Under the pieces are notes generated by a model. The model was not told the origin of the DNA, searched no databases, and saw only the letters and a list, made by a program, of their open reading frames with translations. A DNA stretch of 64,000 nucleotides from an uncultured Christensenellaceae bacterium (GTDB taxonomy: Bacteria > Bacillota > Clostridia > Christensenellales > UBA3700), in NCBI GenBank assembly GCA_910588545.1, contig CAJUOU010000003.1, forward strand, positions 54,248 to 118,247, in the 5' to 3' direction. The position numbers and the translations under genes were made by a program. Shown piece by piece: positions 10,048 to 56,722 of the stretch (its first letter is position 1; every line of letters begins with the position of its first letter).

Positions 10048-11694
10048 TTAAATCTCCAAACATTCATACTTTTGCAACATTTTAGGATACACACAAACTA
10101 CTGCAAATAAAGCATATAACAAAGAACAACCCAAAGTCGGCAACATACTTATAAAATAGTTAAGACTTATATTGTCTCCAAACAAATCAGGCCAAATCGC
10201 ACCAAAGCAAATTACGCTTATGACTGAAACAAGTAGAAGCGGCAATGCCAACACCAAGGATGTCAAAGATTTGGAATTATTTTTAAACAGCTCTTTATTT
10301 GTATTCCAGACAAAGTTTGGCGATTTTAAATCAAAATTTATAACAATTACATTTACCGCATTGCCCGCAATAAACACAGAAAGCACAGTCATAATTACAA
10401 TTACATAATGCACTTTAGCGATAAACATACTTACAATTAAAACCAAAGTCATTAGCAAAGTATATAAACTTGCTAGTGCAATTTTTTGATTGACAACCAT
10501 TTTATCGGGAACAGGCAACATTTTAAGTACATCCATTTGCCTGCCCTCGCGTGAAAATGCGACAATGGCAAAATAGTTCATACCGCAGCCGAAAACCATT
10601 GCAAGACTTACAGCAATAGTAATCACAGGGGCACTACCGCCCGGTTGATTATCACCTCCGTAAATCAAACTCATCATTATCATTACTATAGGCACGATAA
10701 CTAACCCCATCAAATAGTTTATAGCACCGCTTGTCTCCCCAAGGCAGCTTTTTAAATCTCTTAACACCAACGATTGAGCAGGAGATTGAACTTGATTATC
10801 CTTTACCTTGCCATTTCCTTTAGCACCGCTTTCTAAACCTCTTCTTGCGCTTCCTTTATACAAAAATGCGGAAATAGTTATTGAAATAGCAGCAAGACCC
10901 GCAATTATCGCAAAGAAAATACCGAAATTTTTAAACGCTTCTAGCCCGCTTGTAACCATACTGTTTGCAAGATATGTGTTCGGATAAATTATATACGACA
11001 TAATTTTCATTGCGCTTTGTATGCTTTCCATATTAAGGCTGCCGCCTTGTGCTGTATTTTGCATTGCAAAAATCAAATAATAATATCCCGCAAAAAAGCC
11101 GGCGAACAGCAACAATACAATTATCGTTCCTATAATATTGTTACGTTTAAAATAACTTATTACGTATCCCAATGGAACAGCGATTATACTAATGATAAAC
11201 AGCGGTATAAAAGGAGTTAATATACTGCCAAGTATTCCTAAAATATAAAATCCCGCACTTTTGATAGCAGCCCCAATACCCATTACAAGTACAACAGGTA
11301 GTTGGATAAGTAGTGCAAGTCCCAAATGCAACAAATACACCGTTGTAAGCTTGGACAGAAATATATCCAATCCCGTTACGGGTAACGCCATTAATAGCTC
11401 TGTATCCTTTGCGAAAAACAATACCGAAATGGATGACATTACAGCAAAAAACATCACTATTATTTCACTTAAAAACATAATAGATGCTATTGCACTTGCG
11501 ACCATGTCCATAGTCATATTTCTTGAAATGTAGTACACCGCTATGCAAGCAATAATCAAAATAGGCAACATAAGCACACTAAGCGCAACATAAACTGCAA
11601 TGTCTCTACGCCTTTGCTTAAAATCTTTGCTAAGCCCAAACATTATTTTAAAGTTATTTGCTAAAAGCGGTAAAAAAGCCTTTGTCATAATCAA
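10048..11694 (-). CDS. Multi-pass membrane protein, putative ABC exporter permease
   Basis: 548 aa with more than 10 hydrophobic segments. Overlaps by 4 nt the stop of the upstream ABC ATPase gene. Confidence 0.65.
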   Translation of the reverse strand: MIMTKAFLPLLANNFKIMFGLSKDFKQRRRDIAVYVALSVLMLPILIIACIAVYYISRNMTMDMVASAIASIMFLSEIIVMFFAVMSSISVLFFAKDTELLMALPVTGLDIFLSKLTTVYLLHLGLALLIQLPVVLVMGIGAAIKSAGFYILGILGSILTPFIPLFIISIIAVPLGYVISYFKRNNIIGTIIVLLLFAGFFAGYYYLIFAMQNTAQGGSLNMESIQSAMKIMSYIIYPNTYLANSMVTSGLEAFKNFGIFFAIIAGLAAISITISAFLYKGSARRGLESGAKGNGKVKDNQVQSPAQSLVLRDLKSCLGETSGAINYLMGLVIVPIVMIMMSLIYGGDNQPGGSAPVITIAVSLAMVFGCGMNYFAIVAFSREGRQMDVLKMLPVPDKMVVNQKIALASLYTLLMTLVLIVSMFIAKVHYVIVIMTVLSVFIAGNAVNVIVINFDLKSPNFVWNTNKELFKNNSKSLTSLVLALPLLLVSVISVICFGAIWPDLFGDNISLNYFISMLPTLGCSLLYALFAVVCVYPKMLQKYECLEI

Positions 11695-17143: not shown

Positions 17144-17355
17144 AATTGGTTCCTCCATAAAAAAATTTATTTCACTTTTAAAAAAGTGATACTTTAATTA
17201 TAATTCACAATTTGGCAGTTTTAAATATTTTTTCTTTACTTTTTCCGAAAATTTACATATATTTTTAATAATTATTTTACATTGATTTTATTTTAGAGAT
17301 TTTTTCTCACATAATTATTAAATAATTTTAACTTTTACTATACATTTGTTTTATT

Positions 17356-17384
17356 TTGACATATTGCAAAAATTGCGGTATAAT
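17356..17384 (+). promoter_or_regulatory. Consensus sigma-A promoter for 17490-18527
   Basis: TTGACA (17356-17361), 17-nt spacer, TATAAT (17379-17384). Confidence 0.65.
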
Positions 17385-17489
17385 ACTCATATACAAAGCT
17401 ATTTGTAAAAAATATTGTTTATATCTATTAAATAAATATAAATTCTTTTACAAATGCTTACAAACAAATTAATTTACGGGAATTATATT

Positions 17490-42212: not shown

Positions 42213-43034
42213 ATGGAATCTAATACTATCAGCACCCTTTACAAACAGGCTGATTTAATACGCAAAATGTGTATCGAATGTATAGCAACATTCGGTGTTG
42301 GTCATATCGGCGGCTCTTCAAGTATAATCGAGTTTTTAACTGCACTATACTTTAAGATGGCTAACATTGACCCTAGTGACCCGAAAAATCCCGACCGTGA
42401 CAGGATTGTACTTTCTAAAGGCCACGCTGCACCGGGACTTTACGCTACACTTGCCGCAAGGGGGTATTTTGACAAAAAATTATTGCTTACACTAAATCAA
42501 AACGGCACTCAACTTCCATCTCATGCGGATATGTTGAAAGTAAACGGTGTTGATTTTACTGCGGGCTCGTTGGGACAAGGTATTTCCGCTGCGGTTGGTA
42601 TGGCAATTAACGCCATTATGGACAGAAGAAAATATCATACTTTTGCTATTGTCGGCGACGGAGAAAGTCAAGAAGGTCAAGTTTGGGAGGCATTAATGCT
42701 TGCCGGCTCAAGACATTTGCACAACTTTACAGTAGTTATCGATAACAACAAAATGCAAATCGACGGTATGACTGCGGATGTTTGTAAGGTAGAGCCTTTT
42801 GAGTCTAAATTGCGTGCTTTCCGTTTTAAAACATACACTATTGATGGTCACGATATGGAAGCTATTGTCGACACTATCGAAAAATGCAAACGCTCCCGCA
42901 TGCCAACGGCAATTATTTTAAATACTATCAAAGGCAAAGGTTTAAAATGCTGTGAGGGGCACTACAAATCACACAGTGTCAGCTTCACTCCTGAAATGTT
43001 TGCTGCAGAATGCACGGGAGGAGTTTTAAAATGA
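42213..43034 (+). CDS. tkt: Transketolase, N-terminal (TPP-binding) subunit
   Basis: GHIGGSSS, LSKGHAAP and VGDGESQEGQVWEA motifs. Split-tkt arrangement. Confidence 0.92.
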   Translation: MESNTISTLYKQADLIRKMCIECIATFGVGHIGGSSSIIEFLTALYFKMANIDPSDPKNPDRDRIVLSKGHAAPGLYATLAARGYFDKKLLLTLNQNGTQLPSHADMLKVNGVDFTAGSLGQGISAAVGMAINAIMDRRKYHTFAIVGDGESQEGQVWEALMLAGSRHLHNFTVVIDNNKMQIDGMTADVCKVEPFESKLRAFRFKTYTIDGHDMEAIVDTIEKCKRSRMPTAIILNTIKGKGLKCCEGHYKSHSVSFTPEMFAAECTGGVLK

Positions 43035-43990
43035 GCGAATTACACAATAAAGAAATGCGTCAAGTTTACGTTGACAATTTGATTAAATACTCTAAACTCG
43101 ACAGAAGAATTGTCGTGCTTGAGGCAGACCTTATGAACTGCATAGGTACAGGCAAGTTTAAGGAAGCTTTTCCAAGACGTTTTATTAACTGCGGAATTGC
43201 GGAAAGTAATATGATAGGTGTGGCAGCAGGTCTTGCAAGTTGCGGCAAATTGCCTTTCTGCTCTTCTTTTACTCCGTTTGCTACAAGAAGATGCTATGAC
43301 CAAATCGCAGTTAGCGTTGGATATACAAAACAAAATGTAAAAATAGTAGGAACAGACCCCGGCATTATGGCTCAAATAAACGGCGGCACACACATGAGCT
43401 TTGAGGACGTTGCTCTTATGACTCAAGTACCCGATATGATTGTTGTTGAGCCTTGCGATTGCGTTTGCCTTGACAAACTATTCCCTCAAATTTTAAAATG
43501 TGATAAACCGATGTATATTAGATTGCAAAGGAAAAAGACTCCTCCAATCTATGACGAAAAAGCTAAAATCGACCTTTTTAAAGCTAATACTGTTGTGGAC
43601 GGAGATAGCCTTACCATCATAGCTTGTGGCATTATGGTACACCGTGCTATAGCGGCATCAATGACTTTGAAAAACCAAGGTATTAATGCAAGGGTTATTG
43701 CACTTCACACTTACAAGCCTTTGGATAGTGAAACAATACTTAATGCTTGTCGCGAAACAGGTGCGGTAGTAGTTTGCGAAAACCATCACTTGATAGGCGG
43801 CTTGGGCTCTGAAGTTGCTGCACTGCTTATGCAAAATGATGTGCTTATCCCTATGACTAGGGTTGGTATCGGTGACAGATACGGCGAAGTCGGCAAAGAA
43901 GCTTACCTTGCGGAAGTTATGCACCTAACCGAGCAAGACATTGTGGAAAAAGCGCAAGAAGCTTACAAAAGAAAACTTTCAAATATGTAA
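43031..43990 (+). CDS. tkt: Transketolase, C-terminal (pyrimidine-binding) subunit
   Basis: FINCGIAESNMIGVAAGLA motif. ATGA start/stop overlap with the N subunit and a GGAGG RBS. Confidence 0.92.
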   Translation: MSELHNKEMRQVYVDNLIKYSKLDRRIVVLEADLMNCIGTGKFKEAFPRRFINCGIAESNMIGVAAGLASCGKLPFCSSFTPFATRRCYDQIAVSVGYTKQNVKIVGTDPGIMAQINGGTHMSFEDVALMTQVPDMIVVEPCDCVCLDKLFPQILKCDKPMYIRLQRKKTPPIYDEKAKIDLFKANTVVDGDSLTIIACGIMVHRAIAASMTLKNQGINARVIALHTYKPLDSETILNACRETGAVVVCENHHLIGGLGSEVAALLMQNDVLIPMTRVGIGDRYGEVGKEAYLAEVMHLTEQDIVEKAQEAYKRKLSNM

Positions 43991-44062
43991 TTATAAAAAA
44001 ACAAAAACTACTGAATAAGCTCAGTAGTTTTTGTTTTTACCCCCGATTTTCAATTAATTTTT
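43934..44062 (+). repeat. Left copy of island-flanking direct repeat (authentic tkt 3' end + terminator + ACCCCCGATTTTCAATTAATTTTT)
   Basis: Aligns with 53937-54064. I counted 11 mismatches in the 57-nt coding part and about 6 differences in the 72-nt non-coding part. Confidence 0.85.
44002..44038 (+). terminator. tkt terminator
   Basis: 13-bp stem CAAAAACTACTGA/TCAGTAGTTTTTG followed by TTTTT. Confidence 0.85.
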
Positions 44063-44170
44063 GTCAAAAATTATCTTTTTATTTTAAAACAAATTCATTT
44101 AAACACTTAAATAATTAAAGAGTTTTAATGGCGTTTTATCAATTAAATAGCAAGTGAAAATGTATCATGT

Positions 44171-44214
44171 ATAAAAACCTCTAGTTAAAAATATTTTTAA
44201 CTAGAGGTTTTGTC
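44171..44214. terminator. Terminator after the island ABC gene
   Basis: 17-bp perfect palindrome AACCTCTAGTTAAAAAT/ATTTTTAACTAGAGGTT with flanking A/T runs. Confidence 0.7.
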
Positions 44215-44235
44215 TTTATCTTTTTGTTTTCTAAA

Positions 44236-46755
44236 TTACTCTTTAGTTTTTTGAAATGCTTTGCGAAGATTTTTGTCGCTTATTCTACAAATGTTGAAAG
44301 TCAGTGCCAATACAGCAGTGGCTACAGCAATAAATATTGCAATAATTATAGATACTGGTATCAATGGCAATTTAACAATTAATGTCTGACCAATTATAGT
44401 AGTCATAAGAAAATTAAACAAGAATATTACTCCTATACCAACCCCAATACCAATAATTAGTTCAATTAAAAGTTGTATTATTGTGAATATTCCATAGATT
44501 TTGAAATAATCTAATTTTTTTGCACCAAGTGACTTAAGTATAAGCAAATCGTTTGCCTTTGATGTTATAATAATACCAATAGAATTATATATAAGTACTC
44601 CTACAACAGCTGCAAGTATAATACTTGCCACAATGAAAACATAATTACCAATCATTCGCATTTCAGCATATTCACTTGTTATTAGTATGCCATCATCAAT
44701 AATAAAATCTAACATTGATTGATAATAGTTATCATAACTTTTCCCACCATATAGTTTCTTTGCTTGTGCATTTAATTGTTTAAGTCCGCCTGCACTTAAA
44801 CTATCCATATTGAAAATGATTTTATTTAATTGTGATTTTTCATATCCACCCATCATCATTTTATAATCTTCTTCATTATACAAAATTCCTAAATTATTTA
44901 TATCATTTAATCGAGCATCAATTTTAACTTTAAACTTTATGTTCATTCGGATATTTCTGTCAATGGTATATTCTCCACCTAAATCTTGAACATCACCCCT
45001 CACTAGCATAGTTGAAAGCAGTATTGCATCACCATCGTTTAAATTTTTAAACATCGCATAATGATTGTTCATTAACACAGTACCTTTTTCCACACTATCA
45101 ACACCCGTAATATGTGCAGTCAATGAATTAGCAGGTGCTACACCAATGTTATTGTATTTTGCATTCTCTGTTGTCATTAAGGTATGTACATATTGCCCTT
45201 GATTACTTTTAACTTTTCCAGGGCTTTCAATATACATTGTAGCATCCCACACATCACTCCAAGCAGTTGAAACAATTACCGATTGTGCCAAAATCTTATC
45301 TATAACATAAGAATATGCCTCTTGCTCATCCTCACTTTCAAACTCGCTTATTGGTTTTGCAAATTTTTCTGGAACAACAACGCCATCATCAAATACACCA
45401 ACAATTTTAATGCCATAAAAGTTATGTTCAAAGATATTCTCTACTGCAACAAATTTATTAGTATCTTTGTCACGATAACCACCTACAGCATTAAAATATA
45501 TTAATTTACTTTTAGGAATAGCTATTTCTCCTAATTTCTCAGGTTGTCTTCCTTTTATAAGAGAAATACCTAGGCTTTCTAAGTCATTTGTCACTATATA
45601 TTTATCTATAAATGCATATCCGTATGCCACATCTTGCAAATTAAGCATTTTTTCATTTATATCATAAGTCAGAGTGCCAGTAAACTCAGTATCAATACCA
45701 AAAATATCTGTTACATTGGTATATACCTTTGCACTATTTATCCCCTTTTTATCTTTAAGATATTTACTTATTTCAGTCAAATCATTATGCGTTGTCGCAG
45801 TAAAAGTACCATTACCAATTACTCTAGATACTTTTTCATACTTTGAGTATTCAGATATAACCATATTACTTACATTTCTCTTGTCGTAAGTAGCACGAAC
45901 CATAGTTTCGTAATCAATCGATGCCCAATTACAGCAGAACATAAGCATCATAAGTAGAATAGTTGTCATAACCATAAAAGCAATTCGTCTGCCTACCTTT
46001 GCTTTATTAAAAGCAATCGCTACTGACATAGATGTTTTAAAACTTAAACCAACTTTTTTAGCCTTTTGCACGCCGATATTCTGTGGTTTTTCTACATTTT
46101 TACAAACGGCTAACTCAGTAAGTTCTTTATCTTCTACAATTACGCCATCTTGCAATCTTAACATTCGATTAGCATAATTTTTTATAGTTTCAACATCATG
46201 CGTAACAACAATTATTAGAATATCTTTTGCTAATTCTTGAAGTAAACCAAAGATATTTTTGCTGTTTTTGCTGTCAAGATTGCCTGTAGGCTCATCTGCA
46301 AAAATAATTTTTGGCTTTTGTACTAATGCTCTTGCTATAGCAACTCTTTGTTTTTGTCCACCAGACAAACTAAGTACTTTTTCATTTTTACACTCAAAAA
46401 TGCCAAGTTTATCTAGCAAAGCGTCAATTTGCTCTATACTATAGTCACTAGCAACCAATTCCTTTGCAACCAAAATATTGTCAATAACACTAAGGTTTTC
46501 AATTAATTTATAATCTTGATATATTGTAGCAAAAGTTGACTTAATCTCTCTAGGATTGCACTTTTCTCCAAAAATAAAGATTTCGCCATCACTTTTTTCA
46601 TCAATGCCCGACAAAACATTTAGCAAAGTAGACTTTCCACAACCACTACTTCCTACAACTGCTATCATACCATAATTAGGAGTGTCAAAAGACACTCCTC
46701 TTAAGGCTTCAACTCCATTTTCGTAAGTTTTTGTTAAATTTTCAACTTTTAACAT
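44236..46755 (-). CDS. Fused ABC ATPase / FtsX-MacB-type permease (839 aa)
   Basis: N-terminal NBD ([30 protein letters not shown]). A TM helix follows, then a ~400-aa extracytoplasmic region and a C-terminal FtsX-like 3-TM bundle. AAGGAGG RBS. Confidence 0.85.
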
Positions 46756-46952
46756 AAAACCTCCTTAATTAATATAAATTTTAATTTTGGAGTAAAACTA
46801 TATAACTAGCAGTCCTCATCATAAGTATTTTAACATAGTTTTACTCGTTTTTCAATATGAAAAATCAAATTAATTTTTCAATGTTCGCATTTTTTGTTGC
46901 TACACTCTTTAAAAACTTTCTCTTATCACCTCCTTAAGATATTACATTTTCC

Positions 46953-47032
46953 CCCTTCTACTTTATATACGAATAACTTGGCAATTTTTATTCAAAAAAA
47001 AGAAGAATTTTTGAAAATCTCAAAAATTCTTC
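46953..47032 (-). promoter_or_regulatory. Repeated module: 13-bp-stem terminator plus TGAATA-N17-CGTATA promoter (copy upstream of the ABC gene)
   Basis: Hairpin GAAGAATTTTTGA-aaatc-TCAAAAATTCTTC (47002-47032) plus a U-run. -35 TGAATA is the complement of 46989-46994 and -10 CGTATA the complement of 46966-46971. About 78 bp are near-identical to 51655-51736. Confidence 0.6.
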
Positions 47033-47071
47033 ATGTACATTGTTTTAATTAGTCTACACCATTATAATTAT

Positions 47072-50000
47072 TCAATTTAAAAACATATCAAAAAATTCAT
47101 TTGAGTAAGCAGAAGGCAAATCTACTATAGAATCTTCAACTTGATGTTGTCCTGCAACTGGTTTACTTACTTGATCACCTACAGGTCCCACAGAAGTGGT
47201 GCCATCACGACCATATTCACCATTTTTACCATCGCTGCCATTGTTTCCTATAATTCCAGCATTTCCTCCTTTACCACCAGTACCTTTGTGACCAATATTG
47301 CCATTTTTACCATTGATACCACCATCAGTAGTTAAAGTTTCAACATTAGTTCCTTGAGCAGCACTTCCTGCAACTCCATTGGTTCCACCATTGCCACCTT
47401 TACCACCATCACCAGGGTCACCTGTTCCAGTAAACCAATCTCCACTAACATCATCAGCACCTTTGCCGCCATTACCACCATTGCCGCCATTGCCACCGTT
47501 TCCACCGTCGCCACCTTTAATATAATAATTAGAACCACGAGCAACATTAATTATATTATTTGATGCATAAATAGCATATCCGCCATTACCACCGTTTCCA
47601 CCAGCAGATCCATCTTTTCCTGGAGCGCCATCATCACCCTTTATAGGTTTAAAAATACTACCTCTTGGAGGTCTTTCACCATCTTTACCATTTTCACCAT
47701 TATAGCCGCTACTACCATTTCCGCCATTACCACCATAGATATAAACTTTAGAATCAGAATTAAAAGCCATTAATGTAACTTCCTTAGCTTTAATTCCATA
47801 ACCGCCATTAGCACCAGCTACACCATTACCACTTCCATCAGCTCCATTTCCGCCTTTAATGGTAACTGAACCAAAGTAAGTTAAATAAATTGCTGAACTT
47901 TCACAATCAATAGCATTAACTGCACCTCCAGTTGGTGCTTTTATATCAATATTTTTCAAGCCAAATAGAATTGCACCATTTCTGTTTAAAACATTAATTT
48001 TTGCAGTTATTGTCATATATCCATTGCCAATAAATGTTATCATTTTTACAGAAGAGTTTATATTTATAGTATACTTCATACTACTTGAAGCATTAGAAAA
48101 ATCTACTATAGCAACTCTATCAGTGATAGACAAATTCTCACTTGCTGTAATAACTCTTCCTTCCCATTCTACTACTAATTCAATATCTTTAAATATTTCT
48201 TTTGTATTTTCAAAACTATTACCATTATAACTCCATTTTACAAATAAATAACCAAATTTTTGTGGAGTAGCAAGTTCTGTGTTAAACACTGGATTGTCTA
48301 CTGTAAATTCATTTGGCAAATCAAACACAACATCGGCATACCTAAAATTATATGTAATATTATATTTAATTAAATCATATTGAGGGTATAATGTGTTGCT
48401 ATCAATTTGATCTTCCCATACCCATGTTTTTCTTGCATCAATGATAAGATTTCCACCTATTGGTTTATCAAACCAACCTTTAAATATCTTACCTTCTATT
48501 TCTGGAATTGCTATATCCAATGTTTGTCCATATTCAATAAATACTTCTTGTCCCCCATTATCACCGATAATAATTTGATATTTTGATGTTTCATATTTTG
48601 CTAATAGACTAATATCGTCATAAAAATCAATCATATCATTAACATTCAATCTTGTTCCATTATATTCCCAACCACAAAAATCTTTACCAGTTATTACTGG
48701 AGCAACAATATAGTTATCAAACTTAGACCCATAATACTCTGTCCTACTGCCAATAAAATTATTATTTATATCATAAAAATTGATTGTTAATTCTTTTGCT
48801 TTTAATGTATTAGTCAAATTAACAAAACAGATATTCTCTTGATATTCCTGCAATCTAGCTTCTTTTACATACAATATAACTTTATCATCAAAACAATCCC
48901 CATCTAAAACTGGTGGAATATCAGAAGTAAATATTATGCTTTCTAAATCTGTTGCACCTTTAAATGCTGAAACTCCTATAGAATCAATTTTATCAGACAA
49001 TATAATTTGAGTAGGGACATTGTTATCAAAACAATCTCTTCCTATTCTATGTATATTATCTGGAATTTTTACAATTCTTTCTGTTCCAAAATACTTTAAC
49101 AAAACTTTTCCTAAAATTACAAATTTACTTGCATTATTTGAATACCAAGGGGTATCTAACAAAGCGGTAATATCACAATCAATAATATTATTTGCATTAT
49201 TAATATATGCCAATGAACTATTTGTGAATGTTTCAGGTCCAATAAACTCTACTTGATTTAAATTAATAGTTCTAATATTTTTGTTGTTTTTAAATAATCT
49301 AGCATTTAAAATTGTTACTTTATCAGGAATTGTTATTTCAGAAACTACAGGATTTGCATATATTGCCACTTTTTTATCTGTATCTGTAACATTACATTTA
49401 ATTAAAATATTATCTTGCCAAACATAATTTGCATTGCTTTTAAAATTAGTAATCATAGTGCCTAAAAAAGCATCATCTTCAATACTATTAACACCATAAG
49501 GTATGATAAAATCAGTTATTGCTGTATTTGCAAAAGCACATTTAGTTATGATATTAAGAGAGGTATTAGCACTTAAATTTACATTGTTCAAATTACTACA
49601 TCCTGCAAATGCTCTTTCGCCCAAATTGTTCAAATATGGCAAATTGATAGAAGTTAATCCTAAACAATTTTCAAAAGCTGAATTGCCAATATTTTTCAAC
49701 TTATCCATAGCACTTCCTATATTAATACTTGAACAATTATAAAATGCTTCTGCGCCAACATTTTGTAAATTACCTAAGTCATCTAATGCTTCCAATTTAG
49801 TACAATTTTTAAAAGCATAATCTCCAATGTGTGTTACATTGTTCAAATTAGTTATAGATTTTAAATTAGTACAATTTTCAAAAGTTCCTATACCTATATT
49901 TTTAATGTTTTTGGATAAAGCCAAATTTTCAATACTATTATTAGCAAATACATAATCACCTAATTCAGTAACATTTTTTTCATAAATTGTATCAGGAATA

Positions 50001-50782
50001 GTTGTTATACCTTTTGCTTCGGGAATAAGTAATCTATTAATTTTTATTTCATTATTATTAATTTCCACTGCTTCGTATAGAAATTGCGGTCTTAATCCTA
50101 TAACATTTGATTCTATTAATATGTCATATTCTGCCTCTCCTTGTGGTGAATCATTAAAAATTTGCACACAATCACCTTGTGAAACATGTTGAATGATTTT
50201 TTTTGCAATTTCTTGATCACTTAAATCTAAATATTCAAGTCCATATTTTCGCCCTTTCTCATTATTAAATAAATCCATTTCTTTATCAACACCTTGCGAA
50301 TCATCTCCACTTTCATGTGCATCTGCATAAGTTTTAGCATCATCAACTCCCACATATTTAACCATTAATGCATTCCAATATGTATGTCTAAAAGCATCCC
50401 CATTATCCTTATAAAGACTTCCATCATAATAATATAGTGCTTCAGCTTTTGCTAACTTACTACACTCATATATTTGCAATGCAGCGCCTGGTTTTGTAAA
50501 TATAAATGTTTTTTCATCAGGCGAAAGATCTCCATAAAAATCATGAAATTTATCATATAAAGATTTTTCATCTTCAGTTTCATTATTATCTGTTTCATCA
50601 TTAATAGATTGCCTCTCTATTTGATTTACACTCAATTCACTAAACTTTGCTTTGTTGATATTAGCAAATTGCATAGTTTTTCCTATTAAAATTGTCCAAC
50701 TAAATATTGCAATAATCAAAATTGTTGGAATCAATAAAAACTTAAAAAGTTTTGAATTTTTAATTCTTTTATGTTTATCCAT
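47072..50782 (-). CDS. Giant surface protein: TM anchor, DUF6973-like domain, BspA-type LRRs, Listeria-Bacteroides repeats, Gly-rich/collagen-like C-terminus
   Basis: GDAFRHTYWNALM...DAHE...MDLFNNEKGRKYG block. More than 10 repeats of the IGxxAFxNCxxLxxI type. FCGWEYNG and FKGWFDKPIGG repeats. 14 uninterrupted G-X-Y triplets (GINGKNGNIGHKG...GRDGTT). Confidence 0.8.
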   Translation of the reverse strand: MDKHKRIKNSKLFKFLLIPTILIIAIFSWTILIGKTMQFANINKAKFSELSVNQIERQSINDETDNNETEDEKSLYDKFHDFYGDLSPDEKTFIFTKPGAALQIYECSKLAKAEALYYYDGSLYKDNGDAFRHTYWNALMVKYVGVDDAKTYADAHESGDDSQGVDKEMDLFNNEKGRKYGLEYLDLSDQEIAKKIIQHVSQGDCVQIFNDSPQGEAEYDILIESNVIGLRPQFLYEAVEINNNEIKINRLLIPEAKGITTIPDTIYEKNVTELGDYVFANNSIENLALSKNIKNIGIGTFENCTNLKSITNLNNVTHIGDYAFKNCTKLEALDDLGNLQNVGAEAFYNCSSINIGSAMDKLKNIGNSAFENCLGLTSINLPYLNNLGERAFAGCSNLNNVNLSANTSLNIITKCAFANTAITDFIIPYGVNSIEDDAFLGTMITNFKSNANYVWQDNILIKCNVTDTDKKVAIYANPVVSEITIPDKVTILNARLFKNNKNIRTINLNQVEFIGPETFTNSSLAYINNANNIIDCDITALLDTPWYSNNASKFVILGKVLLKYFGTERIVKIPDNIHRIGRDCFDNNVPTQIILSDKIDSIGVSAFKGATDLESIIFTSDIPPVLDGDCFDDKVILYVKEARLQEYQENICFVNLTNTLKAKELTINFYDINNNFIGSRTEYYGSKFDNYIVAPVITGKDFCGWEYNGTRLNVNDMIDFYDDISLLAKYETSKYQIIIGDNGGQEVFIEYGQTLDIAIPEIEGKIFKGWFDKPIGGNLIIDARKTWVWEDQIDSNTLYPQYDLIKYNITYNFRYADVVFDLPNEFTVDNPVFNTELATPQKFGYLFVKWSYNGNSFENTKEIFKDIELVVEWEGRVITASENLSITDRVAIVDFSNASSSMKYTININSSVKMITFIGNGYMTITAKINVLNRNGAILFGLKNIDIKAPTGGAVNAIDCESSAIYLTYFGSVTIKGGNGADGSGNGVAGANGGYGIKAKEVTLMAFNSDSKVYIYGGNGGNGSSGYNGENGKDGERPPRGSIFKPIKGDDGAPGKDGSAGGNGGNGGYAIYASNNIINVARGSNYYIKGGDGGNGGNGGNGGNGGKGADDVSGDWFTGTGDPGDGGKGGNGGTNGVAGSAAQGTNVETLTTDGGINGKNGNIGHKGTGGKGGNAGIIGNNGSDGKNGEYGRDGTTSVGPVGDQVSKPVAGQHQVEDSIVDLPSAYSNEFFDMFLN

Positions 50783-50792
50783 ATTTTATCTC

Positions 50793-51479
50793 CTATTTTG
50801 TTTCATTCTGCTTAAAATGAAAAATTAAATCTTCATTCCAACGAACTTCCAATAATTCATCTTTATAAAAATAAATTATTTGTTTTTTATCTGTTGTTTC
50901 ACTATTTAATATATTAATCTTACCATCTTCATCTTGGCTAAAGTCATATTTAACTCCACCAAACTCTACACCACCATCAACAATAAGCTCTATTGATATT
51001 TCGTTATTTGCCAATAAATCTTCTTCTACCAAATTATATGTGCCTTTGGGTATTCCATAATTTTCTAAAATCTTCAGTTTATCTTTCTTATAACGTAAAA
51101 TTACATGTGGATAATGGACTTCCAATATGTTTTTTTCATAAAAATATTTAATTAGTATTCTTTTTTCTACAGGTACATTTTTATTACCTAGACATACTTG
51201 TCCATCTTCGCCTTGATAAATATCAGATGAATAAGTATCAATGTAATTTTCAATAAATTCAATATCATTATCAATATAAATCACATCAAAAATGGCTTCG
51301 GCACTATCTATGTCTTCATCAATCAAACTATAATATCCAGTAGGAATACCAAATAATGACTCATTAGATGGTTTTCTTAAATAAACATCTATAAAAGCAC
51401 ACCCTGACAAAAGCATACTCATTGTCACAAGTAACAAAGATATAATTATTGGAACTATAACTATTTTTGTTTTTTTCAT
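50793..51479 (-). CDS. Lipoprotein with an internal tandem ~90-aa duplication
   Basis: Start at MKKTKIVIV (ATG 51479, GAGGAG RBS) and lipobox LLSGC. The two halves align (IPTGYYSLIDED...ILEVHYPHVILRYKK versus IPKGTYNLVEED...LLEVRWNEDLIFHFK). Confidence 0.65.
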   Translation of the reverse strand: MKKTKIVIVPIIISLLLVTMSMLLSGCAFIDVYLRKPSNESLFGIPTGYYSLIDEDIDSAEAIFDVIYIDNDIEFIENYIDTYSSDIYQGEDGQVCLGNKNVPVEKRILIKYFYEKNILEVHYPHVILRYKKDKLKILENYGIPKGTYNLVEEDLLANNEISIELIVDGGVEFGGVKYDFSQDEDGKINILNSETTDKKQIIYFYKDELLEVRWNEDLIFHFKQNETK

Positions 51480-51654
51480 CTTATTTCTCCTCATTTTTGC
51501 TAAGTTATAATTATTAAATAAATTATAACTCAAATATTTAAGTTGCTGCAAATTATTTTTTTTAATTTTCTATGTTTTCATATCCATCACTATCTCCTTT
51601 AAATAAAATATTTTATTTTTCTATTGAATAATTTTTATTGCTTAATAAATCACT

Positions 51655-51736
51655 TCCCTTTCTACTTTATATACGAATAACTTGGCAATTTTTATTCAAA
51701 AAAAAGAAGAATTTTTGAAAATCTCAAAAATTCTTC
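51655..51736 (-). promoter_or_regulatory. Repeated module: terminator plus TGAATA-N17-CGTATA promoter (copy upstream of the lipoprotein and giant-protein genes)
   Basis: Hairpin at 51706-51736. -35 is the complement of 51693-51698 and -10 the complement of 51670-51675. Confidence 0.6.
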
Positions 51737-51761
51737 TTTTTTCGTGATGTTTTAGCCGTTT

Positions 51762-52448
51762 TTATGCTAGTAATTTACTAATCTCTTCTTGCCAATCTGT
51801 TTCTCCTTCCAAATCAAAACAAATTCTGTACACATGACCTTTATAGCTAAATTTAGTAAAAGATTTATATAAATATATTTCTTCATCAAACTTTGTATTA
51901 TAATTTATTTTAACACCATTAATTATAATTTCACTAGATAGTGATTCATAGTTAGACAAAAATTCAAAAATATAATTATCTTTTAGTTCCACAAATAATT
52001 TAATTTGTTCATAAGTATCAAGCAAAATCACATCTTGACTCAATAAAACATCTTTTTCTCCATCCTTATAAATTTTAACCCTTTCTTCGATATTTTTATA
52101 ATTTTTAAAATACAACAAATCCAAATTTCTATCTTCATTATATTTTTCAACTGAACCATATTTATAAATATTATTTTCGGAATATGAATAATGAATTGGT
52201 GGCTCTAATGGATTGTTTGGTTTTGATAAAATTATACCAAGAAAAATACCAAAACTAATTATAATAAGCAAACAACAAATTGTTGCCGTAATGATTAATT
52301 GCTGTTTTCTATTATCAACTGCTTTTACTTCGCAGGCGTCATTCCAATGAGTTTCTTCCTTTGCTTTGTGCAAAATTTCATAGTTTATCTCTTGTTTATT
52401 GTCATCTTGCTTTTCCATAAGTTTTGCTAACTTTCTTTTTGTAAACAT
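51762..52448 (-). CDS. Single-pass membrane protein (possible anti-sigma/signalling partner)
   Basis: Start at MFTKRKL (ATG 52448, GGAG upstream, 1 nt after the upstream stop). One central TM helix (LIITATICCLLIIISFGIFLGIIL). No zf-HC2 motif. Confidence 0.55.
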   Translation of the reverse strand: MFTKRKLAKLMEKQDDNKQEINYEILHKAKEETHWNDACEVKAVDNRKQQLIITATICCLLIIISFGIFLGIILSKPNNPLEPPIHYSYSENNIYKYGSVEKYNEDRNLDLLYFKNYKNIEERVKIYKDGEKDVLLSQDVILLDTYEQIKLFVELKDNYIFEFLSNYESLSSEIIINGVKINYNTKFDEEIYLYKSFTKFSYKGHVYRICFDLEGETDWQEEISKLLA

Positions 52449-52449
52449 T

Positions 52450-53301
52450 TTAATATATCTCCACTCCAACAATATCATTAACTGCAGTTGTTCCCTCTAA
52501 CCATATATAGCCGGTAGGAAAATGTTCTAGTCCACTACTGACACTTAAATATGTATCCGTCCTAATTACGTTATTACCATTATAGTACCTAACTTTTTTT
52601 ATGCCATTTGCAATAAGTATATGATTAGCATTATACTCAGTGGTTGTCATAGTTAGGTTTGTATCCCCTATTTCCAAATTTGTTACTAAATTTGACATTG
52701 TAATAAACAATGCAACAGGTTTGCCATTTTTAAAACTATTAGCTATTGCATCATAATCAATCTTGCTACCTTGCCCATAGCCCCTATACGTTATATTATA
52801 TCCTTTATCAACCACATATTCATTCAAACCATTTTTAAATTGCTCTTCTGTTGCACCTGCTCCCGTTGTGTTAACTTTCATACGAAAATACAAGTCATTC
52901 ATAAGGTTTTGTATGTTTGAATCGATTGGCTTATAAACAATATTTCCACCTCTTTTTAAAAAAGAACTAAAATTCGGTATTATATTTTCCAATGTAATAT
53001 CATAATAACCAACAATAATTCCGCCTGCAACTGCTGCACAACCATTTTTCAATACAGAATCAGCATCATAATAATTTGGTGTCTTTGGCGACATTGTTGT
53101 ATCTATAAGCACTTCTTTTCTTGTATAATTCAAAGTCTCATTTCTAGTAGAAAATAAAGATGGTCGAATCTCTGAGTTATAATATATTTCTCCTGCTTCT
53201 TCTGCAAAAACTTCTAATGGCATAAATGTAAAACCCATTACAAAAGCAATCATAATTGCTACAATACTTAATGTTACTACATATAATTTTTTTGTGTTCA
53301 T
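52450..53301 (-). CDS. Secreted papain-fold cysteine peptidase-like protein (C10/C39-like)
   Basis: Signal peptide. Candidate catalytic Cys in KNGCAAVAGGIIVGYYD and His in NANHILIANG. This is recognition-level only. Confidence 0.45.
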   Translation of the reverse strand: MNTKKLYVVTLSIVAIMIAFVMGFTFMPLEVFAEEAGEIYYNSEIRPSLFSTRNETLNYTRKEVLIDTTMSPKTPNYYDADSVLKNGCAAVAGGIIVGYYDITLENIIPNFSSFLKRGGNIVYKPIDSNIQNLMNDLYFRMKVNTTGAGATEEQFKNGLNEYVVDKGYNITYRGYGQGSKIDYDAIANSFKNGKPVALFITMSNLVTNLEIGDTNLTMTTTEYNANHILIANGIKKVRYYNGNNVIRTDTYLSVSSGLEHFPTGYIWLEGTTAVNDIVGVEIY

Positions 53302-53319
53302 ATCCTAGCCTCCACTATA

Positions 53320-53348
53320 TATACGAACAACTTTGCAATTTTTATTCA
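53320..53348 (-). promoter_or_regulatory. Third copy of the TGAATA-N17-CGTATA promoter motif (upstream of the peptidase gene)
   Basis: -35 is the complement of 53343-53348 and overlaps the sigma gene stop codon. -10 is the complement of 53320-53325. GGAGG at 53309-53313 and ATG at 53301 leave an unusually short leader. Confidence 0.45.
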
Positions 53349-53870
53349 ATTTTGATAAAAATTTTTCATTTTTTTATAAATTCGTGTTCTTTGCGTATAT
53401 ATTGTAGCTATAGGGACATTATCCATTTCTGCTATTTCTTTAATTGTATATCCTTCCCAAAACATACGATATAACAATTCTTTTTCTTTATCATTTAGTA
53501 TTGACATTAATTCTTCAACAATTAGTGTTTTTAACGGCTGAAAACTTTTGTCTTCAATTTCATAATAACTATTACTTATATATTCTACTTTTATATCCTT
53601 TTTGTTTTCATCTATTGCTAAATTTTTTATGATTGTATACATCCAATTATATCCATTCTTTTTTATATCGAATCTACTTGCTTTCAACAAAATTTTTTTA
53701 TATAGTTCAAGCAAAACATCTTCAACACTATTCTTATTCTTCAAATAGTATTTTGCAATGCTTTCCATATTTTTATATGTATATTCAAACAATTTATCAA
53801 AAGCATGCTCATTTCCATTTGCAACCTGCTTGATATAATGATTTATTTTTTTATAATCTAATTGTTTCAA
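53346..53870 (-). CDS. Sigma-70 family (ECF-like, regions 2 and 4 only) RNA polymerase sigma factor
   Basis: Region 2-like AFDKLFEYTYKNMESIAKYYL...VEDVLLELYKKIL. Region 4 HTH LLYRMFWEGYTIKEIAEMDNVPIATIYTQRTRIYKKM. TTG start. Confidence 0.8.
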   Translation of the reverse strand: MKQLDYKKINHYIKQVANGNEHAFDKLFEYTYKNMESIAKYYLKNKNSVEDVLLELYKKILLKASRFDIKKNGYNWMYTIIKNLAIDENKKDIKVEYISNSYYEIEDKSFQPLKTLIVEELMSILNDKEKELLYRMFWEGYTIKEIAEMDNVPIATIYTQRTRIYKKMKNFYQN

Positions 53871-53910
53871 AAAATCTTATCCTTTGCCAAAGGCTATTAA
53901 ATATAAAAAT

Positions 53911-53939
53911 ATTATATCTTACTTGCCACAGTATGTCAA
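53911..53939 (-). promoter_or_regulatory. Consensus sigma-A promoter of the island sigma gene
   Basis: On the minus strand TTGACA (53934-53939)-17-TATAAT (53911-53916). It lies on the antisense strand of the tkt relic. Confidence 0.6.
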
Positions 53940-53993
53940 GATTTTGTTAAAAAAGCACAAGAAACTTACAACAGGAAACTTGAAAATATATAA
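53913..53993 (+). pseudogene. Relic 3' end of a second, diverged transketolase C-subunit gene
   Basis: 53937-53993 translates to QDFVKKAQETYNRKLENI-stop, against QDIVEKAQEAYKRKLSNM-stop for the real tkt end (43934-43990). Weaker similarity continues ~8 codons further upstream, and a stop at 53904-53906 closes the frame. Confidence 0.7.
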
Positions 53994-54064
53994 TTATAAA
54001 AAATAAAAACTACTGATTTAAACTCAGTAGTTTTTGTTTTACCCCCGATTTTCAATTAATTTTT
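53937..54064 (+). repeat. Right copy of island-flanking direct repeat (relic tkt end + second terminator copy + ACCCCCGATTTTCAATTAATTTTT)
   Basis: Same stem AAAAACTACTGA/TCAGTAGTTTTT as 44002-44038 with a different loop. Confidence 0.85.
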
Positions 54065-54160
54065 TTAAAACGCCTTTTAAATTTAAAATCATTTAAATAA
54101 CTTCTTTCATAGGTGTTGTTTTATTTTAGAGCATTGTAACTTTTAAGTTGCATTTAAAAA

Positions 54161-54401
54161 CTAATCAATGTCTAATGTTTCAATATCAAAAAGTGGGCTA
54201 TCAAAAAACTCGCTAACAGACATTTCTAAAGCTGTAAAATTGTAATTAAAGTTGTTAAATTTACACTTTTATATCTATTATAAATTAATGATGTAAAAGT
54301 ACCTTTTATAAGCCTGAAGATAATTGTAATTTATACAAAGAAATCCCCTTTTCTGCGACAATTTCTATAATTCTTTCACTTACTGCTTTTGCTATTGTCA
54401 T
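54161..54401 (-). pseudogene. Decayed XRE-family HTH gene (two compensating frameshifts)
   Basis: GGAG plus ATG at 54401. Reads MTIAKAVSERIIEIVAEKGISLYKLQLSSG, then the next frame gives LIKGTFTSLIYNRYKSVNLTTLITILQ, then the original frame gives ALEMSVSEFFDSPLFDIETLDID-stop. Confidence 0.6.
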
Positions 54402-54480
54402 ATCTGCTCCTATGTTTCGTGGTTATGTTTAACATAGTCATTTATAAATATAATGAATATTGATATTTTAAACCCTACAC

Positions 54481-54984
54481 TTATTTGTTAAGCATTGTAT
54501 CAATAGTTAAATATTTTAGTAGCAATTTTGCCATAAACTCATTGCTCTCGTTCATTCCACTTTCAACCCATCTATAAATTACTGCTAATATACCATTATT
54601 TATAAATGTTGTATCATATTCATCTACTTCAAAATTTGTGTACAAATATTGGTGGCTTAAACGCAATAATTCTTCATCTAAATTCATTTTATGCATAAGC
54701 ACAAATGCTTCGCTATTTACCCTAAAATATTCAAACAACTTTACAAAATTTTCAAACTCGTAACCAAGCTCCAAATTTAAACTACTGTGCCAATTTATAA
54801 TCAAATTATTTACTTTTTGTATTACAATATCTTCCTTAGATGAAAAATGTCTATAAAAAGTACTACGGTTATAGCCGGCCTTTTTGCATATTTGTTTGAT
54901 ATTTATCTCATTAATGTCACAGGAATTGCTTAAAGAAATCAAAGCATCGTAAAAACACTCCTGAGAAAAATTTTTTGTTGACAT
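54481..54984 (-). CDS. TetR/AcrR-family transcriptional regulator
   Basis: N-terminal HTH INIKQICKKAGYNRSTFYRHFSSKEDI. Divergent from 55175-57579. Confidence 0.85.
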   Translation of the reverse strand: MSTKNFSQECFYDALISLSNSCDINEINIKQICKKAGYNRSTFYRHFSSKEDIVIQKVNNLIINWHSSLNLELGYEFENFVKLFEYFRVNSEAFVLMHKMNLDEELLRLSHQYLYTNFEVDEYDTTFINNGILAVIYRWVESGMNESNEFMAKLLLKYLTIDTMLNK

Positions 54985-55174
54985 TAGCAACACACTCCCT
55001 TTATTTGTCGCAAAATATAACCAGCAAATGTATTTTTATAAATTGTACTATTGACTAAAAAAGTAATTTTATGATATTATTTACTCATAGGTATTTAGTT
55101 TTATTATAATTATTATATCATTTTTATAGCTAAATGTCAAAAATAACAAGTAAAATTTTTGCAAAGGAGAAATC

Positions 55175-56722
55175 ATGAAAATTGCCATGACAGGTGTTAG
55201 TGGTAATATGGGCAGTGAGGCGCTTAAACAAACGTTTGAACTGCCTAATGTGGAATTTATTCGCATTATATTACGAAACACGAACAAAAACCAAAAACTA
55301 GCAAAAAGATTAAAAAAACTTTATAAAAATAAAATAGATATAATTTTCAGCTCAATCGAAAATCAAGAGGCTTGCGAGCAGTTGGTCACTAATGTAGATT
55401 ATGTTTTGCACATGGCGGCAGTTATTCCGCCACTGTCCGACAACTCCCCTCAACGCAGTTATGACTGCAACAGGTGTGGTACAGTCGCTTTGGTTAACGC
55501 TATCAAAAAGCAAAACCCTATGGTAAAATACATACATATTTCTACCATTGCAGTATATGGTAACCGAAACGAAAAACACCCCTTTGGGCGTGTGGGAGAC
55601 CCGTTACTTATCAGTCCGTTCGATGCGTATGCAAAAGACAAGTTGTACGCAGAGAGATATGTTTTGGACGCACAACTTGAAAATTGGGTAGTACTTCGTC
55701 AAACGGCAATGCTACATCCTAACTTGTTTAAGGACAATATTGCCGATGGTTTAATGTTTCATACGGCATTAAATTCTCCGCTTGAATGGGTTACTGCACG
55801 AGACAGCGGTTATCTTATCAAAAACATTTTTTTAAGAGACAGTGCCAACGAAATATCCGACTTTTGGCATAAAATTTACAATATCGGCGGCGGCTATAAC
55901 GGCCGTTGTACCGGTTACGATACAATGAATGACGGATTTGGAATAATAGGCGGCAATATTGAAAAGTTTTTTAAGCCTTACCATTTTTCCGCACGCAACT
56001 TTCATGGCATTTGGATGTCAGACGGAGACAAATTGAACGAATTGTTCGGCTATCAACGTGACGGCGGACACAAACAATTTTGGCTTGATGTGGCAAAAGA
56101 CCACCCTATATTTGTTTTAGGTAAGATTGTCCCTAAATTTTTATTAAATTTATTTTTATTCAATCGCTTGATAAATGACGAAAACTCTCCTACTACTTGG
56201 GTTAAAAATAAAGATTTACCTAAAGTCAAAGCATATTTTAACGGCATGGATGCAGCAAAAAGCATTTCCGGTAATTGGAAAGACATAAAGTTGCTTTGCA
56301 AAAACGATTTTGGCGATTTTGACAAATTGCGTGCTGCGACTTCCGAAAATCTTTTGTCGCACGGATATGACGAAAGCAAAAAACTTTGCGAACTTACTCT
56401 TGAAGATTTACAAAAGGCAGCTGAGTTCCGCGGTGGCAAGTGCTTAGCGGATAAAAAGCCTGAAAATGAGTATATTAAAATAAAGTGGCAATGCTCGGAG
56501 GGACATGTATTTGAAAGTTCGATTTACACAGTACTAGGTGGTGGACATTGGTGCCCTGCTTGCACTATGCCGGAAAATCCAATTTGTTGGAGATTTGATA
56601 TATTAGCTAAAAAAAGTCCGTTTATTGCACAACTATGGTACGATTCACACGATAAAGACGAAGATTGTTTATACTTTATCGACGAGCAAGGCAATCAACA
56701 GATTAAAAAGGATACAATATGA
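55175..56722 (+). CDS. NAD-dependent epimerase/dehydratase (extended SDR) with ~190-aa C-terminal extension ending in a zinc-ribbon-like motif
   Basis: MKIAMTGVSGNMGSEAL Rossmann motif and YAKDK (YxxxK). C-terminal WQCSEGHVF...HWCPAC. AAAGGAG RBS. Confidence 0.75.
   Translation: MKIAMTGVSGNMGSEALKQTFELPNVEFIRIILRNTNKNQKLAKRLKKLYKNKIDIIFSSIENQEACEQLVTNVDYVLHMAAVIPPLSDNSPQRSYDCNRCGTVALVNAIKKQNPMVKYIHISTIAVYGNRNEKHPFGRVGDPLLISPFDAYAKDKLYAERYVLDAQLENWVVLRQTAMLHPNLFKDNIADGLMFHTALNSPLEWVTARDSGYLIKNIFLRDSANEISDFWHKIYNIGGGYNGRCTGYDTMNDGFGIIGGNIEKFFKPYHFSARNFHGIWMSDGDKLNELFGYQRDGGHKQFWLDVAKDHPIFVLGKIVPKFLLNLFLFNRLINDENSPTTWVKNKDLPKVKAYFNGMDAAKSISGNWKDIKLLCKNDFGDFDKLRAATSENLLSHGYDESKKLCELTLEDLQKAAEFRGGKCLADKKPENEYIKIKWQCSEGHVFESSIYTVLGGGHWCPACTMPENPICWRFDILAKKSPFIAQLWYDSHDKDEDCLYFIDEQGNQQIKKDTI

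Follow-up and report, generated by a model that had tools for sequence, protein, structure and literature searches.

A cluster of six genes lies between the 3′ end of the transketolase genes (tkt) and a TetR-family regulator gene in a 64,000-nucleotide (nt) stretch of DNA from an uncultured Christensenellaceae bacterium (assembly GCA_910588545.1, contig CAJUOU010000003.1, positions 54,248 to 118,247 of the forward strand). This whole 64-kb stretch is referred to as the window; all coordinates are window positions, and L-numbers denote the related loci that were retrieved. Our analysis suggests that the cluster, hereafter the island, is probably a lineage-specific accessory locus of foreign composition, which comprises a self-contained regulon of an extracytoplasmic function (ECF) sigma factor and arose by a one-time insertion that is now fixed. 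Atypical composition, direct repeats at the 3′ end of a conserved gene and absence from related species, all hallmarks of genomic islands, are combined at this locus. A further hallmark, the presence of mobility genes or their remnants, is missing from the island.

A repeat of the tkt 3′ end at both island borders

Transketolase is encoded here by a split gene pair, with an N- and a C-subunit that are both supported by Pfam. An earlier interpretation of this DNA from its letters alone, hereafter the sequence-only reading, had placed the end of the C-subunit at 43990 (...QDIVEKAQEAYKRKLSNM-stop), and the sequence and the Pfam match both confirmed this. Gene callers start this subunit at 43031, an alternative upstream ATG is present at 43010, and the 319-aa product is recorded in 27 blocks of the searched collection. 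At the far end of the island, a relic of the tkt end at 53937-53993 translates as QDFVKKAQETYNRKLENI-stop. Compared to the tkt end, 12/18 residues are identical and 11/57 nt differ, exactly as had been described. The two tkt ends form part of an imperfect direct repeat of 130 bp (43934-44064 and 53937-54065) that brackets the island. A hairpin is common to both copies, with differing loops, and is followed by a 24-nt tail (ACCCCCGATTTTCAATTAATTTTT) that is identical in both, so that the shared terminator stem, different loop and identical tail of the sequence-only reading were all recovered. The tail occurs exactly twice in the 64 kb, compared to zero occurrences expected.

Strong folding was predicted for both hairpins whichever strand is read, with energies for the two copies of -21.5 and -17.9 kcal/mol (+ strand) and of -21 and -15.5 kcal/mol (- strand) and z-scores of -6 to -10. 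Each is flanked by an A-run and, on the opposite side, by a T-run, and both are putative bidirectional terminators. Comparison of the left copy of L001, a conspecific whose left copy is 99.5% identical to that of the window, with the right copy of the window by blastn gave an E value of ~1e-36. The similarity ends with the tail, beyond which identity was 55.6% compared to 54.1 +/- 1.5% in shuffled sequences. Weaker similarity had been claimed for about eight further codons upstream of the relic; it is not there, since just 6/30 nt are identical to tkt, and the stretch corresponds instead to the predicted promoter of the sigma factor gene. A gradient of divergence along the repeat had also been claimed. 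The relic does carry more differences (11/57) than the terminator and tail (6/75, comprising three mismatches and three indels), and the gradient is weak (Fisher p = 0.07).

Two candidate identities for parts of the repeat were rejected. An Rfam match to psRNA14 at 43995-44072 scored 34.6 bits on the hairpin, below the gathering score of 60, and most likely reflects likeness to a terminator. The tail was considered as a dispersed genomic repeat; it has two copies in the window, and an 18-nt match at 41191 consists of the T-run alone and lies inside a gene.

Occupancy, inheritance and relic decay among relatives

The relatives comprised 49 loci, obtained by exact-protein look-ups and by a single scan of the species representatives in GTDB. 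Empty sites were sought by look-ups with TktC, TktN and the epimerase encoded in the right flank, and JGI metagenomes were scanned for the right junction. The sources are uncultured gut metagenome-assembled genomes (MAGs) labelled Clostridia or Christensenella, some of them from the MGBC catalogue. In five more distant species (L021-L025, with tktC 87-90% identical) the island is absent, and a different terminator and an NTP_transferase gene on the - strand lie downstream of tkt. Past NTP_transferase, L022 has TetR, epimerase and flavodoxin genes, syntenic with the right flank of the window, and its TetR gene is ~1 kb from tkt. Because L021-L025 lack the island and L022 keeps the same right flank, the island is an insertion or replacement specific to the clade of the window. 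Relative to these species, the proposal of the sequence-only reading that the island was inserted at the tkt 3′ end is thus supported.

Within the clade, the left junction was occupied in 12/12 spanning contigs and the whole right junction in 10/10, two of which came from JGI metagenomes. No empty site, for which the sequence-only reading had advised a search, was found among these 22 junction-spanning contigs; other contigs broke inside the repeat. Presence and absence of the island were thus seen to differ between species only. The same joint between relic and island was present in 13/13 right-junction sequences. The closest GTDB representative (L020/L046), with flanks ~96% identical to those of the window, has the same left arrangement and the same joint, with one single-nucleotide polymorphism in the promoter spacer. 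Between strains, the gene for the large exporter of the island (ABC839) is 99.2-99.8% identical and the sigma gene 98.7-99.6% identical, comparable to the flanks, and in L020 ABC839 is 97.3% identical to that of the window compared to 96.0% for the flanks. The single shared joint, the full occupancy and the flank-like conservation of the island together suggest one old event, followed by vertical inheritance and fixation. The island had been described as either fixed or mobilised in trans; the occupancy of all 22 contigs and the one joint of the right-junction sequences speak for the former, and no cognate att-bearing element was found for the latter in the IMG/VR, phage and plasmid collections.

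The relic is a neutrally decaying pseudogene fragment. All relic alleles have an identical 5′ boundary, and the changes that distinguish them from the real tkt ends of the clade number 7-8 GC>AT compared to 1-2 AT>GC. The R2 allele (L012, L030 and L031) contains two in-frame stop codons and the L044 allele an indel. With 92-96% identity between strains, the relic region is the fastest-evolving part of the locus. In L020, the relic differs from the strain's own tkt end at 6/57 positions, all of them towards A or T. The relic resembles the tkt end of its own clade (YKRKL-NI), unlike that of other species such as L022 (VSRKK). It also shares variants with the resident gene. In the window, L020 and L013/L032, real and relic copies agree with each other in having a QQ or QE codon state. 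A 19-nt patch in the working tkt end of L029 is identical to the R2 relic, and variants of the terminator loop are distributed over left and right copies across strains. This co-variation with the resident tkt allele suggests gene conversion between the copies. The AT-ward changes, decayed alleles, clade-like end and co-variation make it unnecessary to derive the relic from the tkt of another host, as the sequence-only reading had done. Its reading of the divergence gradient as a sign of crossover in the near-identical part of the repeat likewise loses its force. The stems of the hairpin are conserved and the loops free, as expected of selection on a working terminator, and such selection and gene conversion account equally well for the low divergence of hairpin and tail, which therefore locates no crossover.

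The last codons of the working tkt gene (43960-43990; L026, L029, L030, L032 and L020) are themselves unusually polymorphic, with SNM, ANN, ANM and ANI ends. This polymorphism occurs among strains that are otherwise 98-99.9% identical and partly matches relic alleles.

Island genes, promoter units and cargo turnover

The region between the repeats (44065-53936) contains six open reading frames (ORFs), all on the - strand (Table 1). Their GC content at third codon positions (GC3) is 0.13-0.21 compared to 0.34 +/- 0.045 for the 39 other ORFs of the window (Mann-Whitney p = 1e-4), a single one of which has a GC3 as low as that of the island. Overall GC is 0.287 in the island and 0.344 in the window. 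The composition check suggested by the sequence-only reading thus found the island to differ from the rest of the window rather than to be indistinguishable from it. That reading had also noted the lack of an integrase, and indeed no recombinase was detected among the six ORFs by Pfam, PHROGs or NCBIfam. A recombinase remnant in the gaps is ruled out because these non-coding intervals (171, 316, 210 and 66 nt) are too short, and no mobility genes were found in ~12 island variants or in gene tables within +/-10 kb.

The sigma factor contains regions 2 and 4 only and is 174 aa long, within the ~170-200 aa expected of ECF (group 4) sigma factors. It is constantly adjoined by orf283 and orf238 in the variants examined. 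No family match to orf238 was obtained in Pfam, PHROGs or NCBIfam; judged by its topology alone, it is a candidate anti-sigma factor. The 1236-aa surface protein (LRR1236) has four leucine-rich repeat stretches of the LRR_5 family (E 4e-48) and an N-terminal signal or anchor segment. The part of its gene at 47203-47842, which encodes C-terminal sequence, consists of ~26 overlapping copies of a 9-nt-period repeat (family D1) and is Gly-rich, of the GNGG type. Homologues of LRR1236 in other strains are 950, 998 or 1049 aa long, or split, which suggests slippage or frameshift variation.

The -35 hexamer of the predicted sigma gene promoter straddles the joint between relic and island, and its TTG is the reverse complement of the first codon of the relic. 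The 29-nt promoter string is identical in 13/13 right junctions, although no stretch of the locus varies more than the relic beside it. Three 81-nt units lie upstream of other island genes. Copies 1 and 2, read on the - strand, consist of a terminator hairpin followed by TGAATAAAAATTGCNAAGTTNTTCGTATATA, and copy 3 retains the motif. The motif (TGAATA-N17-CGTATA) thus occurs three times in the island and is also kept at a homologous cluster in L037. The SigW-type ECF promoter of Bacillus subtilis is TGAAAC-N16-CGTATA. The island motif resembles ECF-type promoters, and its conservation suggests that it may be used as one.

The size of the island varies from roughly 6 kb (L031) to ~13 kb. The cassette of LRR1236 and orf252 (47033-51736, 4704 bp) lies exactly between the two 81-nt copies that are 99% identical. 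Both genes are absent in L028-L031 and L045. Exactly those 4704 bp are missing from L045 and L030, with a single 81-nt copy left; in L045 (L045:1-140) this unit joins 46900-47032 directly to 51737 onward. The absence of LRR1236 and orf252 is thus a true presence/absence polymorphism that arose through repeat recombination. ABC839 is absent in L031. A 3-kb module of ATP-binding cassette (ABC) genes, encoding an ATPase of 223 aa, a 369-aa protein and an FtsX-like protein of 348 aa, replaces the spacer next to the left repeat in many strains, and a search for flanking repeats around this module yielded a 10-nt T-rich match only. In L020, the same module was observed on the other side of ABC839. 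L020 also contains a 6.2-kb segment bracketed by a repeat of at least 300 nt (10972-11271 and 17172-17471, 99% identical), which consists of the terminator, tail, spacer and 3′ end of an ABC839-type gene. The two ABC genes of L020 are otherwise 67% identical in protein, suggesting recent conversion or a single-crossover insertion. Collectively, the cassette polymorphisms between repeats show that repeat-mediated homologous recombination is active in the region.

Table 1. Positions of the tkt genes, repeats, island features and right-flank genes in the window.
Feature	Position	Strand	Basis or remark
tkt N-terminal subunit, 273 aa	42213..43034	+	Pfam Transketolase_N, E 8e-44
tkt C-terminal subunit, 319 aa from called start	43031..43990	+	Pfam Transket_pyr and Transketolase_C
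Left repeat copy: last 18 tkt codons and stop 43934-43990, hairpin ~43997-44038, 24-nt tail 44039-44062	43934..44064	+	Repeat families D4, D9
Spacer, swapped in other strains for the 3-kb ABC module	44074..44204 (131 nt)	.	L001:9825-12844 compared to the window; gene tables of L026, L028-L032
Perfect palindrome, 38 nt, 19-nt arms, no loop; terminator-like, 3′ of ABC839	44174..44211	.	Inverted repeat I25, terminator scan
ABC839, fused ABC ATPase and FtsX-type permease, 839 aa, MacB-like exporter	44236..46755	-	Pfam ABC_tran, FtsX; NCBIfam
81-nt putative terminator and ECF-type promoter unit, copy 1, upstream of ABC839	46952..47032	-	Family D2, terminator scan, alignment A3
LRR1236, secreted/surface protein, 1236 aa: DUF6973, BspA-type LRR_5 repeats, Gly-rich C-terminal repeat region	47072..50782	-	Pfam
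orf252, cassette partner of the LRR gene	50793..51551	-	No family match in Pfam, PHROGs or NCBIfam
81-nt unit, copy 2, upstream of orf252, 99% identical to copy 1	51656..51736	-	Family D2
orf238, called as 228 aa: ~55 cytoplasmic residues, single membrane span, outside domain	51762..52478	-	
orf283, secreted protein, no assigned function	52450..53301	-	Constant core gene, in every variant
81-nt unit, copy 3, diverged (70%), upstream of orf283	53306..53386	-	Family D2, alignment A3
ECF-type sigma-70 family factor, 174 aa	53346..53870	-	Pfam Sigma70_r2, r4, r4_2, ECF; TIGR02937, 56.7 bits (cut-off 42.9)
Predicted consensus sigma-70 promoter of the sigma gene, TTGACA-N17-TATAAT	53911..53939	-	Single 12/12 match in 43800-54600 (10.8 kb scanned)
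Right repeat copy: tkt relic 53937-53993, hairpin 54005-54035, tail 54041-54064	53937..54065	+	
TetR-family regulator, first gene of the conserved right flank	54481..54993	-	Pfam TetR_N, TetR_C_8
NAD-dependent epimerase/dehydratase family protein, 515 aa, right flank	55175..56722	+	Pfam; 72% identical to the L022 counterpart

Two further observations concern the surroundings of these features. Contigs L002, L004 and L008, from three independent assemblies, stop at 44203, inside the 38-nt palindrome. A second strain-variable spot is located upstream of the glyceraldehyde-3-phosphate dehydrogenase gene (gap, left of ~33295), ~10 kb from tkt, where L026, L027, L028 and L032 (positions 1-1000) contain variants with an AAA_11/AAA_12 helicase, a helix-turn-helix (HTH) protein, or an HTH protein together with a MunI-type restriction enzyme.

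Origin of the island and its relation to known elements

The sequence-only reading had advised tracing the donor lineage through the island genes and the relic; no donor element was found for either in the plasmid, phage or IMG/VR collections. Plasmid matches to the island covered at most 4% of the query and mostly fell on the conserved ABC ATPase segment. The plasmid collection contained no match to the core or the relic, the phage collection none to the island, and IMG/VR none to the tail or hairpin. In other MAGs, homologues of the sigma factor at 72-75% identity belong to clusters that share one gene order, sigma-282-228-293-ABC843. These occupy a second chromosomal locus (L033-L038 and L040-L043), in which sigma-282-228 and equally variable cargo genes are located between a gene for a 748-aa LRR_5 protein and a Band_7 gene; a sigma homologue at 80% identity (L039) occurs in yet another gene context. 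ABC839 is 84% identical to ABC843 of the second locus in L037. Here the DNA homology is bounded exactly by the stop codon of the ABC gene and the start codon of the sigma gene, and leaves out the terminator, tail and relic.

We propose that a consensus housekeeping promoter drives expression of the sigma gene, which would be followed, as a constant set, by the genes for a secreted protein (orf283) and a membrane protein (orf238), with optional cargo, namely the BspA-type LRR surface protein and FtsX-type ABC exporters, each placed behind a putative terminator and ECF-promoter unit. This regulon would have entered the gap between tkt and TetR once, in the ancestor of the species-level clade, and its entry would have duplicated the final 57 nt of tkt, the bidirectional terminator and the 24-nt tail, so that each end of the island has a copy. 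Most probably the duplicated homology itself served for the formative recombination, either by the uptake of a circular DNA with a tkt-end/terminator segment in a single crossover or by a local duplication and later deletion. Both routes fit the layout and the recombination seen in the region, and a site-specific integrase whose gene later vanished is another possible agent. The left copy would now provide the working tkt end, and its terminator would act on the converging transcripts of tkt and the ABC gene. The hairpin of the right copy may have been retained as a terminator that separates the TetR transcript from the sigma promoter, and the first three bases of the relic would serve in the -35 element of the latter. 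Present-day change would consist of the gain and loss of cargo by homologous recombination between internal repeats, and the whole island would not excise.

Campbell-type insertion of a circle by a single crossover duplicates the homologous segment on either side and requires no recombinase gene. The locus resembles such an insertion in that one repeat copy lies on intact tkt and the other is a truncated fragment. It differs from the textbook case in that the circular donor and the first illegitimate joint, between the sigma promoter and tkt codon Q, were not observed here. A length of 130 bp is short for RecA-dependent integration.

Several points weigh against the proposed insertion history. 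The formative event cannot be reconstructed, with no intermediate among the relatives, and a 130-bp repeat at a gene 3′ end, when combined with foreign composition, is equally a textbook sign of insertion by an integrase. A clean empty site with the same terminator was not seen, and the island-free species carry a different gene and terminator after tkt. One locus, L018 (GCA_948763295.1), opens with an 85-nt match to the real tkt end (97.6%) before it continues into the right flank. Its beginning (L018:1-250) comprises a real-type tkt end and hairpin, a right flank of the L013 type and a scaffold gap of Ns at 242-251. L018 starts exactly 76 nt before the first base specific to the right flank, which fits an assembly-graph node at k = 77; the contig is ambiguous and could represent either a genuine island-free chromosome or a k = 77 repeat node. 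Finally, the homologous cluster of L037 also has a low GC3, lower than that of its own flanks, suggesting that low GC may be a trait of the gene family and not proof of recent import.

The island might instead be a decayed integrative element. An integrative and conjugative element (ICE), an integrative and mobilisable element (IME) or a prophage would have entered the tkt 3′ end with a copy of the tkt end in its attP, after which the integrase and transfer genes were lost and attL and attR kept; a related element might then mobilise the remainder in trans. Such elements, including cis-mobilisable elements (CIMEs), are known from Streptococcus salivarius and S. thermophilus, where they occupy the 3′ ends of genes such as fda, rpsI and rpmG (PMC7563491). 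CIMEs are defined as lacking the signature genes of recombination and of conjugation or mobilisation, as being flanked by the att sites of an ICE or IME, and as derivatives of such an element that occur alone or in tandem accretion with it at one target gene (PMC7563491). The tkt island carries foreign-composition cargo between direct repeats on the 3′ end of a housekeeping gene, and its lack of recombination genes agrees with that definition. Like CIMEs (PMC7563491), it is cargo-only, falls in the 1-13 kb range, has repeats at a gene 3′ end and an atypical composition, and contains no integrase, relaxase or conjugation genes. Three separate rearrangement boundaries also fall in or just after the tail, namely the repeat end (44064/54065), the indel of the 3-kb module (44074) and the right flank of the L013 type, which diverges within the tail. 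Despite these likenesses we consider this origin rather unlikely. No integrase or relaxase was present at the locus in ~12 island variants, including those of the sister lineage, no ICE, IME or tandem accretion was seen next to tkt in the loci fetched, and the 22 junction-spanning contigs included no empty site. IMG/VR and the phage and plasmid collections gave no att-like match. The repeat copies differ by indels in the hairpin flanks and their alleles are shuffled by gene conversion, leaving no strictly conserved core. The cargo is a coherent sigma regulon of chromosomal type, which is also present at a second locus without these repeats; it is homologous to a chromosomal sigma cluster elsewhere, and the derivation from an ICE or IME that is expected of a CIME is not supported. 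In the data examined, the tkt island thus differs from CIMEs in having no cognate ICE or IME, accretion, empty site or conserved att core, and further in being fixed in every genome of the clade, inherited vertically and flanked by repeat copies in concerted evolution.

A purely local origin is less probable still and in our view quite doubtful. In this scenario the cluster already lay beside tkt, a tandem duplication started 57 nt before the stop codon, and the second copy of the island was deleted, all without horizontal transfer of the repeat. The likeness of the relic to the clade's own tkt end, from which it differs mainly by AT-ward decay, would be explained in this way, and segmental rearrangements are proven at this locus by the 6.2-kb segment of L020, the LRR cassette and the 3-kb module. 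The scenario nevertheless requires two precise events, with a deletion that ended exactly at the tail, and no relative has a longer tkt fragment or a duplicated island, all relics having one 5′ boundary. It also leaves the foreign composition and the first arrival of the cluster unexplained. That the similarity is coincidental, or that a repeat was collapsed or made chimeric during assembly, has virtually no probability. Many metagenome contigs do break inside the repeat, showing that assemblers struggle here. The blastn E value of ~1e-36 and the zero matches to the tail expected by chance argue against coincidence, and the recovery of the same two junctions from over 20 independent assemblies (NCBI, ENA, Logan and JGI) refutes an artefact.

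The locus falls within known categories. It resembles ECF regulons in its two-domain sigma factor, the adjoining single-pass membrane protein, the repeated promoter-like motif TGAATA-N17-CGTATA ahead of downstream genes, and the envelope or surface cargo. Unlike such regulons, the sigma gene of the island lies behind a predicted consensus housekeeping promoter and does not appear to be autoregulated, and the candidate anti-sigma factor has no support from homology. LRR1236, with its four LRR_5 stretches and N-terminal signal or anchor, is similar to the BspA-like LRR surface proteins of gut and oral anaerobes. It differs from these in the added DUF6973 and the long Gly-rich C-terminal repeat region, and in its presence in some strains only.

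These results suggest caution when islands are sought by their borders. A gene-end repeat, foreign composition and a missing integrase mimic an attL/attR pair, whereas the population data show instead a single old fixed insertion, and the similarity gradient can be attributed to terminator function and gene conversion and does not reveal a crossover site. The scar of the insertion appears to have been reused, with the leftover tkt fragment contributing to the -35 element of the putative sigma promoter and forming its upstream region, and the duplicated terminator separating the new operon from its neighbour. A bolder idea, which we regard as improbable, is that repeated terminator units act as an integrase-free 'portable homology' for cassette shuffling. 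Three such units would be counted under this idea, namely the tkt-end/terminator/tail repeat around the whole island, the 81-nt unit around the LRR cassette and the L020 repeat of at least 300 nt around the 6.2-kb segment. If it were true, RecA-dependent looping-out and re-insertion would shuffle surface-protein and exporter cassettes within and between homologous ECF-sigma loci of these mouse-gut Christensenellales, and each unit would supply a recombination site, a terminator and a sigma-dependent promoter together, forming a cassette system for surface variation. The island as proposed here represents a strain-variable ECF-sigma regulon for surface proteins and exporters in uncultured gut bacteria, and could bear on their interaction with the host.

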